From assembly GCF_016026235.1 (NCBI RefSeq), contig NZ_CP065613.1: 64,000 nucleotides of DNA. One strand, 5' to 3'. The first letter of the stretch is position 1. Each line of letters opens with the position of its first letter. Shown here piece by piece: positions 62,564 to 63,730 of the stretch. This DNA is from Escherichia coli. Lineage in GTDB: Bacteria > Pseudomonadota > Gammaproteobacteria > Enterobacterales > Enterobacteriaceae. The position numbers were made by a program, and so were the translations under genes. The notes beneath the pieces were generated by a model, which worked only from the letters and a program-made list of their open reading frames with translations, had not been told where the DNA came from and searched no databases.

Positions 62564-62702
62564 ACGGCTAAGAGAATGTGACTGCGTTTAGGGGCCACCA
62601 TGTCCGAATTCGGAATTAAAGTAAAAGTTAAATGAAATAAAGTAAATTTCAGCGCATTCTATTTTTGCTTTATGTTTTTATGCTCAGTAAAAGGAATGAC
62701 CG

Positions 62703-63656
62703 ATGAATGGTAAATATTTTGTACGCCTCGCATTACATACTCTGAAATGCACTCAAAAAGATTTAGCAAGCCACTTAGGTGTTTCCTCAACACAAATTAG
62801 CAAGTGGAAAAAAGGGGAACACATGTCCGCTGATATGGAAAAAAAGTTCAGAAATATTACACAAATAGGAGATTATTCTCCTCAACTAGTTGAATGGACA
62901 GGCTCAGTCGCGAATGCTGAGAAATGGGATCGACTTATCCATTTTCTTGCTCGACGAGCTATGGACGATGCTGAAACGGGTTATATAACACAACTTCTTA
63001 CTGACGAAGATGGTTTTTTGGTTGAAGAAACAATTGATGTATTAAAGCGAATAGGTTTTCCTACACCTCTTTCCTTTCCTGAAGGACTTAATATTGACGA
63101 CGATAATGCTGATGAAGAAGAGGCTTTTTGGGAGATATTAGAGAGCAATGCTCATTGTTCTGTAATTAATGATATTTATCATGCTCTGAATGATGTTTAT
63201 GGTTTCTACATAGCATATGTTGATGAGTTGATTCAGGACGACGATTTAGATGTCTATTCAAGCGAAGCCATCAATATTCAGAGTTCATTGATATCACTTG
63301 CTGCATGCAAAATTGAAATTGATACTCCTGTTGCGTCAAACTTTAAAGAATTTCGTTATAGAGTTAAAAAAGACTACGAAAATTGGTTGAATCAACTCAA
63401 GATGATGGCATTCAGGGCGGGAATTCCGTTAAGAGCCGAACTTCTGGAAATGGTTTATAACACCGCTGACCAACTTAGCGTTGCAGCAGAAGCCGAACGT
63501 TTCGATTTCAATAAATCTCGCATTCATCCAGATATATACATGAACGAGATCCTTACTGGCATGAGAATAATTCACCAAGTGCTTCCGGTAATAATGCAAA
63601 AGTTAGAAATTACAGATTTCAAACTAGATGAAACAGATTTATGCCTGGGTAAATAG
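62703..63656 (+). CDS. uncharacterised protein: N-terminal XRE/Cro-type HTH plus acidic domain of unknown function; occupies the locus that holds yhbX in K-12-type chromosomes
   Basis: 317-aa ORF with SD aaaaggaatgaccgATG; HTH signature QKDLASHLGVSSTQISKWKKGE; about 37 percent G+C over first 120 nt by hand count; own flanking terminators. Confidence 0.6.
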   Translation: MNGKYFVRLALHTLKCTQKDLASHLGVSSTQISKWKKGEHMSADMEKKFRNITQIGDYSPQLVEWTGSVANAEKWDRLIHFLARRAMDDAETGYITQLLTDEDGFLVEETIDVLKRIGFPTPLSFPEGLNIDDDNADEEEAFWEILESNAHCSVINDIYHALNDVYGFYIAYVDELIQDDDLDVYSSEAINIQSSLISLAACKIEIDTPVASNFKEFRYRVKKDYENWLNQLKMMAFRAGIPLRAELLEMVYNTADQLSVAAEAERFDFNKSRIHPDIYMNEILTGMRIIHQVLPVIMQKLEITDFKLDETDLCLGK

Positions 63657-63696
63657 TTATCAAATTAAGAATACTTAACCTGGCTTATAAAACGAA

Positions 63697-63726
63697 AAAA
63701 GACGCTTTTCAGCGTCTCTTTTCTGG
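63697..63726. terminator. bidirectional hairpin terminator (leuU on minus strand; also ends the + strand ORF)
   Basis: aaaaaagacgcttttcagcgtctcttttct. Confidence 0.65.
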
Positions 63727-63730
63727 AATT

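Follow-up and report, generated by a model that had tools for sequence, protein, structure and literature searches.

What is the gene that stands between argG and leuU in some Escherichia coli chromosomes, how long has it been there and what does its product do? In the stretch of 64 kb of E. coli DNA analysed here (the window), this interval encodes a helix-turn-helix (HTH) protein of 317 amino acids, which is an uncharacterised XRE-type regulator with a payload domain. The reading that we favour, to which we give a probability of roughly 60% from sequence comparison, is that the locus is a self-contained, probably self-repressing single-gene unit with a helical payload and an old resident of its site. 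The main new result of the analysis is the operator of the protein family.

The HTH gene is solitary and AT-rich

The HTH gene lies alone between argG and leuU and is bracketed by two terminators (Table 1), in agreement with the preliminary description of a single plus-strand ORF with its own Shine-Dalgarno sequence between the argG terminator and the leuU hairpin. Its G+C content is 37.3% (GC3 29.9%) as against 52.2% in argG and 50.3% in the whole window, which bears out the AT-richness noted earlier. Rfam searches over the argG-leuU interval matched the tRNA alone, and the bidirectional hairpin adjoining leuU is kept in both alleles of the interval as well as in other genera.

Table 1. Features of the argG-leuU region in window coordinates
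Feature	Position	Strand	Remarks
argG (argininosuccinate synthase)	61176..62519	+	left flank
Variable segment alternating with the yhbX segment	62512..63688	.	left breakpoint in the last argG codons; right breakpoint 42 nt before leuU
argG intrinsic terminator	62538..62566	+	10-bp perfect stem AAAGGCCGCA/TGCGGCCTTT (hairpin 62538-62559), then T run
Operator-like site 1, TAAAGTAAA	62617..62625	+	Escherichia variant of the family operator
Operator-like site 2, TAAAGTAAA	62638..62646	+	21 bp from site 1
Operator-like site 3, TTTGCTTTA, inverted	62664..62672	-	TTTACTTTA in the other E. coli lineage and the other Escherichia species
Operator-like site 4, CTCAGTAAA	62683..62691	+	abuts the Shine-Dalgarno sequence
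Shine-Dalgarno sequence AAGGA	62691-62695	+	8 nt upstream of the HTH gene start
HTH gene CDS, 317 aa	62703..63656	+	ATG start; XRE-HTH and family-specific C-terminal domain
XRE/Cro-C1 HTH domain, residues 6-42	62718..62828	+	recognition helix SSTQISKWKKGE
Acidic all-helical domain, residues 57-317	62871..63653	+	no fold match outside the family
Bidirectional hairpin terminator	63700..63717	.	common to the HTH gene and leuU; adjoins leuU
leuU, tRNA-Leu(GAG)	63731..63817	-	right flank; neither disrupted nor duplicated

The predicted protein has a pI of 4.7, and no transmembrane segments were found in it. The sole Pfam match along its length was HTH_19 (residues 6-42, E 5.4e-5), and the HTH_3 and HTH_19 profiles together with the fold place this domain in the XRE/Cro-C1 HTH superfamily, as had been proposed from the letters of the sequence. 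The product of the nearest annotated carrier (99.9% nucleotide identity), WP_001012978.1, is named 'helix-turn-helix domain-containing protein', and no paper on the gene was found under its accession, the genes of the locus or the architecture of the protein. The Xre-peptidase protein of PD-lambda-2 (PMC9519451) is a different one. Assignment to the ImmA/IrrE-type proteins (COG2856), against which the preliminary description had also argued, is contradicted by the lack of HExxH in the translation, of a Peptidase_M78 match and of a conserved neighbour.

The argG-leuU interval of E. coli has two states

In strain O55:H7 CB9615 the interval contains a minus-strand yhbX coding sequence of 1,626 nt for a protein of 541 aa annotated as phosphoethanolamine transferase, which matches the K-12-type gene order given in the preliminary description. 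Among 5,426 complete E. coli genomes, yhbX occupied the interval in 5,167 and the HTH gene in 236 (4.3%). These counts are compatible with mutual exclusivity, and yhbX was absent from both annotated carrier loci; the expectation that the interval would prove strain-variable, with the HTH gene as the alternative to yhbX, was thus upheld. The last three codons of argG vary with the interval allele, reading KVK in the window and KGQ in yhbX strains, and the two alleles share identical sequences at the leuU terminator and the tRNA.

Coverage of the ORF was at least 80% in all 236 carriers and 100% in the 60 listed, and 228 of the 236 were at least 99% identical; FDAARGOS_943 and E110019 are examples of carrier strains. 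Two allele lineages of the HTH gene exist in E. coli, and their synonymous divergence is 0.05 versus 0.067 for argG in the same pair. The gene is accessory in E. coli, Salmonella enterica and Citrobacter koseri, since the GTDB species-representative genomes gave no match under the title of any of these species; the lone 100% match in that set was a contig of 1.5 kb listed under a Collinsella MAG.

The HTH gene looks like an old occupant of its site

Orthologues were found in the arrangement argG-X-leuU-secG in a second Escherichia species (L089), C. koseri, S. enterica and an Enterobacter sp., with nucleotide identities to the window gene of 91.6, 74.7, 71.7 and 70.4%, respectively. The corresponding values for argG are 92.1, 86.2, 85.0 and 82.4%, so that the hosts rank in the same order with both genes. 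In S. enterica, one variant of the HTH gene was present on at least 1,000 contigs. No integrase was found beside the HTH gene in the annotated carrier loci and no att-type repeat was detected, the repeat search in the upstream stretch having given short direct repeats that were not read as att. The right breakpoint falls outside the tRNA, at a distance of 42 nt. Members of the family are low in G+C in each of the hosts examined: the content amounts to 39-43% in Salmonella, C. koseri, Serratia and Pseudomonas, compared with 54-58% in the host loci.

Because the gene occupies the same site across genera, has diverged in the same rank order as argG, lacks an integrase and att repeats and has its breakpoint outside the tRNA, it looks like an old resident or a long-standing polymorphism and not like a recent tRNA-targeted insertion. 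The preliminary description had taken it for horizontally acquired cargo next to a tRNA; the shared site in other enterics, the argG-like ranking of divergence and the lack of integrase and att repeats speak against this, and both the polarity and the mechanism of origin had been read wrongly. Most simply, the locus can be read as a long-standing polymorphism, either of presence/absence or of two alleles, whose alleles would be swapped by homologous recombination via the conserved flanks. Co-divergence with the flanks could alternatively have its source in repeated homologous replacement through the same conserved flanks.

The gene belongs to a family of chromosomal stand-alone units

In a set of 5.8 billion sequences, 745 relatives were found, which form 322 representative clusters at 50% identity. 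Nearly all members are 310-330 aa long with the same architecture, and truncated or partial versions also occur in the databases (P0003, P0010, P0013). The carriers are mostly Proteobacteria (Gamma-, Beta- and Alphaproteobacteria), joined by Desulfuromonadia-type genera (Oryzomonas, Citrifermentans), Acidobacteria and a Deferribacteraceae MAG. Identity between the proteobacterial classes is 50-57%, and mean column identity reaches 66% in an alignment of 46 gammaproteobacterial, betaproteobacterial and Desulfuromonadia-type members. The dN/dS ratio is 0.07-0.09 when enteric genera are compared and 0.23-0.25 among Escherichia sequences; as judged from its sequences, the family is under purifying selection.

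The family is a chromosomal stand-alone single-gene unit. Among 53 species genomes, no recurrent neighbour family was detected beyond same-genus pairs when genes of at least 80 aa were compared, and no small ORF (25-110 aa) was conserved beside family members. Homologues were found in none of 50,697 phage records (INPHARED), in none of 2.9 million IMG/VR contigs and on five of 72,556 plasmids. Pfam families were tallied for the nearest and the next-nearest gene on either side, the 20 commonest of each tally being considered. The roughly 194 neighbours included HipA (4), Fic (2, plus Pseudomonas loci), AbiEii (2) and DarT (1), and the other listed families were mostly housekeeping. A paralogue in C. 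freundii adjoins a P4-type integrase with CbtA/CbeA and an antirestriction gene.

The acidic C-terminal domain is conserved and matches no recognised family

The 260-residue domain formed by residues 57-317 carries a net charge of -28 (family mean -27) and has no Pfam match. Nor was there any match to this domain beyond its own family in NCBIfam, PADLOC, PHROG, PDB or AlphaFold-DB: for the protein as a whole, NCBIfam, PADLOC and PHROGs returned weak matches limited to the HTH, far under the curated cut-offs, the best in PADLOC-DB v2 having an E value of 1.8e-4 over residues 16-40, and a profile search of PDB sequences with the domain returned nothing. AlphaFold2 predicted an all-helical structure, whose pLDDT was 87 when the whole protein was modelled and 78 with residues 57-317 by themselves. 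Foldseek against AFDB50 gave members of the same family and then noise, and no known ligand-binding fold was matched. Structure prediction and fold comparison, proposed earlier as checks, thereby agree with the initial impression of an acidic remainder outside recognised families. The absence of a fold match is weaker evidence for residues 245-300, because this most conserved stretch of the domain (RIHPDIYMNELLxGMRxIHQVLP) is modelled with the lowest confidence in both AlphaFold structures (pLDDT about 47-88 per 10-residue block).

Polar residues that are invariant across variants include K74, W75, E91, D164, Y169, Y172, K203, E246, E263, H275-P276, E282, R288 and H291, and they persist in variants fused to TIR and GIY-YIG domains. 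Such invariance is more in keeping with a pocket, an active site or a conserved surface for a partner than with a module that serves dimerisation alone. The domain is presumably the functional payload, since it bears the strongest and broadest constraint in the protein, and its probable activity is either catalysis or the binding of a conserved ligand or partner. Two candidate assignments were discarded. A hemerythrin-like nature was a lead taken from the name of a 209-aa Vibrio relative, and Pfam analysis of a 319-aa homologue on a Vibrio plasmid revealed no hemerythrin domain; a J-domain, considered on account of a conserved HPD tripeptide, was rejected by eye (acidic flanking helices, wrong spacing) and gave no profile match.

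A predicted family operator lies upstream of the start codon

When k-mers were counted in 41 upstream regions, taken from unrelated taxa, a single motif, AGTAAAT/ATTTACT, proved to be common to 34. The family operator TTTA[C/G]TAAA is enriched about 530-fold upstream of members: scanning 40 loci with the 9-mer pattern TT[TA]A[CG]T[AT]AA gave 65 occurrences in 7.2 kb upstream of start codons (38 of the 40 loci) versus 8 in the other 474 kb, and composition shuffles averaged 0.93 occurrences with a maximum of 7. The sites are preferentially spaced by 21 bp (10 cases), and spacings of 67-68 bp also occur. In 17 of 38 loci, a -35-like TTG(A/C)NN starts 5-6 nt after site 1, with the second site within the promoter spacer and another near the ribosome-binding site. 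Nearly a palindrome, the 9-mer falls short of the length of a classical dimer operator.

Almost no variation is seen across the family in the recognition helix QISKWKKGE, and the preceding residue 30 co-varies with base 3 of the operator. Proteins with Thr30 were accompanied by TTTAGTAAA in 23 of 23 loci and those with Ala30 by TTAAGTAAA or TAAAGTAAA in 10 of 11, giving a Fisher p of 8e-8 (uncorrected for phylogeny); at least five lineages, no more than 55% identical to one another, are represented among the Ala30 proteins. In IMG/VR, a search for operator pairs (TTTASTAAA, 11-13 nt, TTTASTAAA) gave, among the matches listed, at least two with multiple sites; the two examined are hairpin repeats that look unrelated to the family and were set aside. 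One of them adjoins a long ORF read as leucyl-tRNA synthetase.

In the window, the sole paired operator site is that in the HTH gene's own promoter. Its four Escherichia-type sites are kept in two E. coli lineages and in the second Escherichia species, which is 8% diverged, and the E. coli copies deviate from the family consensus. Between sites 1 and 2, E. coli has ATGAAA, and Salmonella and C. koseri have the -35-like TTGAAA or TTGCAA. No sigma-70-type promoter was found upstream of the E. coli HTH gene by consensus scan. Owing to the lack of a consensus promoter and to ATGAAA standing in place of TTGAAA, the E. coli copy may be weakly expressed or served by another promoter.

These data fit a model in which the argG-leuU interval would form one self-contained unit of promoter, operators and one coding sequence. 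The N-terminal XRE-type HTH is predicted to bind the family operator, in Escherichia TAAAGTAAA, and as the putative operator copies lie beside or across the promoter and ribosome-binding site of the HTH gene itself, the protein is most likely an autorepressor. The C-terminal helical domain would act as the payload. As an old occupant of the site in Enterobacteriaceae, the unit would have been kept by a minority of E. coli, with yhbX at the site in the rest.

Relation to known regulators

The XRE/Cro-C1 autoregulators C.AhdI, C.Esp1396I, the Aca proteins and HigA are 60-130 aa long and control a partner gene (nuclease, anti-CRISPR or toxin), unlike the window protein, which has a conserved additional domain of 260 aa and no partner gene. 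Among the closest known systems are the SaPI master repressor Stl and other repressors that combine an HTH with a helical domain. The peptide-sensing regulators RRNPP, Rgg, PlcR and AimR likewise join an HTH and a helical domain of about 250 aa in one polypeptide; the TPR-like C-terminal peptide-binding domain typical of RRNPP regulators was not found in the window protein.

TIR-fused relatives and a possible role in conflict

A sister clade comprises six 90%-identity clusters (P0135, P0271-P0275), 54-100% identical to each other and including two Stenotrophomonas genomes, whose proteins consist of a complete family protein followed by a C-terminal TIR domain with the motifs DVFISHASEDK and WTNHELDG. 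One of the Stenotrophomonas proteins is WP_354283694.1. The genes of the clade are solitary as well. The TIR portion matched the retron-TIR model (4e-27) and Thoeris ThcB4 (1.5e-5). The likeness to anti-phage systems such as retron-TIR and Thoeris of the ThsB/ThcB4 type concerns the TIR domain and not the system, since the fused proteins scored 95 bits against a cut-off of 600; the window protein itself has no TIR domain with the catalytic Glu motif. An N-terminal GIY-YIG fusion (P0250), a singleton on a 1.4-kb metagenome contig, was too weak to be used as evidence.

The TIR clade gives a hint that the helical domain may serve in conflict or as a sensor. As a tentative possibility, the protein could be a stand-alone immune or conflict sensor whose helical domain responds to an invader or to a disturbed component of the host, with the HTH restraining expression or serving as the output and a TIR NADase added as effector in the sister clade. 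In its favour, the clade retains the whole helical domain and combines it with a diverged recognition helix, and the operator is missing in the one upstream region of the clade examined; the gene is single, AT-rich, patchy in distribution and probably self-regulated, and the surroundings of the C. freundii paralogue and the HipA, Fic, AbiEii and DarT genes among the neighbours would also suit such a role. Sensors engaged in an arms race do not usually evolve slowly and uniformly, and this is how the family has evolved, with dN/dS of at most 0.09 between genera and 52-57% identity between proteobacterial classes. Moreover, the window protein has neither an effector domain nor a PADLOC match past the HTH, the TIR clade makes up about 1% of the family and the GIY-YIG case is a single contig. 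Slow evolution and mostly housekeeping neighbours thus argue against a classical defence gene, and the earlier suggestion of an immunity or anti-phage factor keeps a weak footing in the TIR-fused clade and loses ground on both these counts. It is more doubtful that the 260-residue domain is a novel sensor module in a conflict system that consists of one protein, in which sensing would alter DNA binding by the fused HTH and, in the rare form, drive a TIR NADase.

Other readings of the gene

We consider it unlikely that the protein is an ordinary accessory transcription factor whose C-terminal domain binds a small molecule and which controls host genes besides its own promoter. An HTH joined to a larger ligand-type domain is the commonest architecture of bacterial one-component regulators, the many invariant Tyr, Asp, Glu and His residues point to a pocket, and purifying selection is strong; single matches to a loose operator pattern were also somewhat above expectation in the window (5 versus 1.6 expected, a number reached by 1 of 100 shuffles). 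Against it stand the lack of a co-travelling target gene, the unrelated contexts in 53 genomes, the confinement of the window's operator pair to the gene's own promoter and the failure to match a known ligand-binding fold, and a regulon would need to pre-exist in each recipient.

Improbable, too, is a gene that is silent in E. coli and heading for loss. The degenerate operator copies, the failure of the promoter scan, a dN/dS of up to 0.23-0.25 within Escherichia, the truncated or partial database versions and the absence of the gene from 95% of E. coli genomes would agree with decay; yet the ORF is covered to at least 80% in every carrier, 228 carriers are at least 99% identical, the Escherichia-type sites are kept between the diverged species, and a dN/dS of 0.25 still indicates constraint, the ratio being inflated by short branches.

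An immunity repressor left from a decayed prophage, satellite or ICE is very improbable: besides the absence of homologues from the phage and IMG/VR collections, their rarity on plasmids and the lack of a Peptidase_S24 match that would mark a CI/LexA-type repressor, the solitary state is the rule in 53 species, and purifying selection and co-divergence with the flanks do not favour a remnant. Least credible is an orphan antitoxin or toxin-antitoxin remnant, as the preliminary description had also envisaged. HipA-like or Fic genes adjoining in a few loci and a weak likeness to type II antitoxins would speak in its favour; yet this likeness is confined to the HTH (14.6-15.3 bits with the HigA, HipB, MqsA and Y4mF models versus cut-offs of 47.7-71.65; all scores 13-17 bits versus curated cut-offs of 47-300), no toxin gene or small ORF is conserved alongside in the 53 species genomes, and 317 aa with a conserved 260-aa domain is unlike an antitoxin.

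Implications

The argG-leuU interval of E. coli is a two-state locus, with yhbX in 95% and the HTH gene in 4% of genomes, and low G+C together with an adjoining tRNA does not imply recent island insertion here. If the model of a self-repressing unit with a helical payload holds, the gene would represent a further class of portable, self-regulating single-gene cassette, whose payload domain is 50-57% identical across proteobacterial classes and which has stayed at a single chromosomal site while Escherichia, Salmonella, Citrobacter and Enterobacter diverged. With an operator predicted and residue 30 co-varying with one of its bases, DNA binding is open to direct testing, and the TIR-fused relatives offer an experimental route into what the helical domain senses. 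Should the doubtful sensor-module reading be true, E. coli, Salmonella and many other Proteobacteria would hold, among their housekeeping genes, an unrecognised and anciently kept one-gene immune or exclusion factor.

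Allele boundary and promoter of the family gene

The final three codons of argG were found to vary with the allele of the argG-leuU interval: the window, which carries the gene for the 317-aa XRE-HTH protein (the family gene), ends in ...NKVK*, strains carrying the yhbX segment end in ...NKGQ*, and the Salmonella argG product ends in ...NKGK*. As these last codons are unlike between the two alleles, the recombination breakpoint falls within the 3' coding end of argG itself. Between sites 1 and 2 of the predicted operator, the −35-like hexamer reads ATGAAA throughout Escherichia, whereas the corresponding hexamer is TTGAAA in Salmonella and TTGCAA in Citrobacter koseri (comparison with L010 and L012). 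ATGAAA is a putative promoter-down change that is genus-wide in Escherichia.

Coordinates of the features discussed
Feature	Sequence	Position
argG final codons	window	62509-62519
−35-like hexamer region	window	62630-62660
AT-rich tdcA-yhaB-yhaC stretch	window	6000-10000
ISEc60 transposase	L001 (NZ_CP065615.1)	10121-11311
Island region with the family paralogue, Citrobacter freundii	L092	3091-5951
Region at the TIR-fused homologue, Stenotrophomonas sp. 2619	L217	11561-13394
Hairpin repeat, IMG/VR	L144	4138-4212
Hairpin repeat, IMG/VR	L175	9009-9083

Genomic neighbours and mobility of family members

In C. freundii, a paralogue of 58% identity is the first cargo gene behind a P4-type integrase, on an island that also carries DUF4942, CbtA/CbeA and RadC genes and one antirestriction gene; one family lineage, if not more, therefore moves on an integrative island. 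Upstream of the family gene, and divergent from it, three unrelated genomes (L028, L046 and L048) carry HipA-like kinase genes, and in Pseudomonas (L007 and L008) a 397-aa Fic gene precedes the family gene on its own strand, at a distance of 183 nt. These adjacencies may be coincidental, arising at variable spots, or may mark a genuine association. The TIR-fused homologue of Stenotrophomonas sp. 2619, which is adjoined by thioredoxin, baeRF_family12/Host_attach, AAA_33 and PhdYeFM antitoxin genes, could belong to a small conflict-gene cluster.

A second AT-rich stretch of the window (38.7-38.8% G+C) is no island but the ordinary tdcA-yhaB-yhaC region, found in 4,304 of the 5,426 E. coli genomes at a coverage of at least 80%. 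Just past the window's end, FDAARGOS_943, the strain matching the window most closely, carries an IS4-like ISEc60 transposase between folP and ftsH.

Matches outside the family or genus

A 1,485 bp contig filed as a Collinsella sp. MAG (JAIJJM010000762.1) encodes a protein 100% identical to the E. coli copy and is almost certainly a binning contaminant out of E. coli. In two IMG/VR contigs, four TTTACTAAA/TTTAGTAAA copies form a large hairpin repeat, an unrelated element that has the 9-mer in common with the operator by chance. A long ORF that adjoins the repeat in one of the two was taken for a leucyl-tRNA synthetase gene, and this points to host DNA.

Loss of yhbX

The names yhbX and leuU each occur ten times in a preprint about how the outer membrane controls cell shape (bioRxiv 10.1101/2023.02.03.527047), which may be relevant to what goes missing in strains where yhbX has been replaced.
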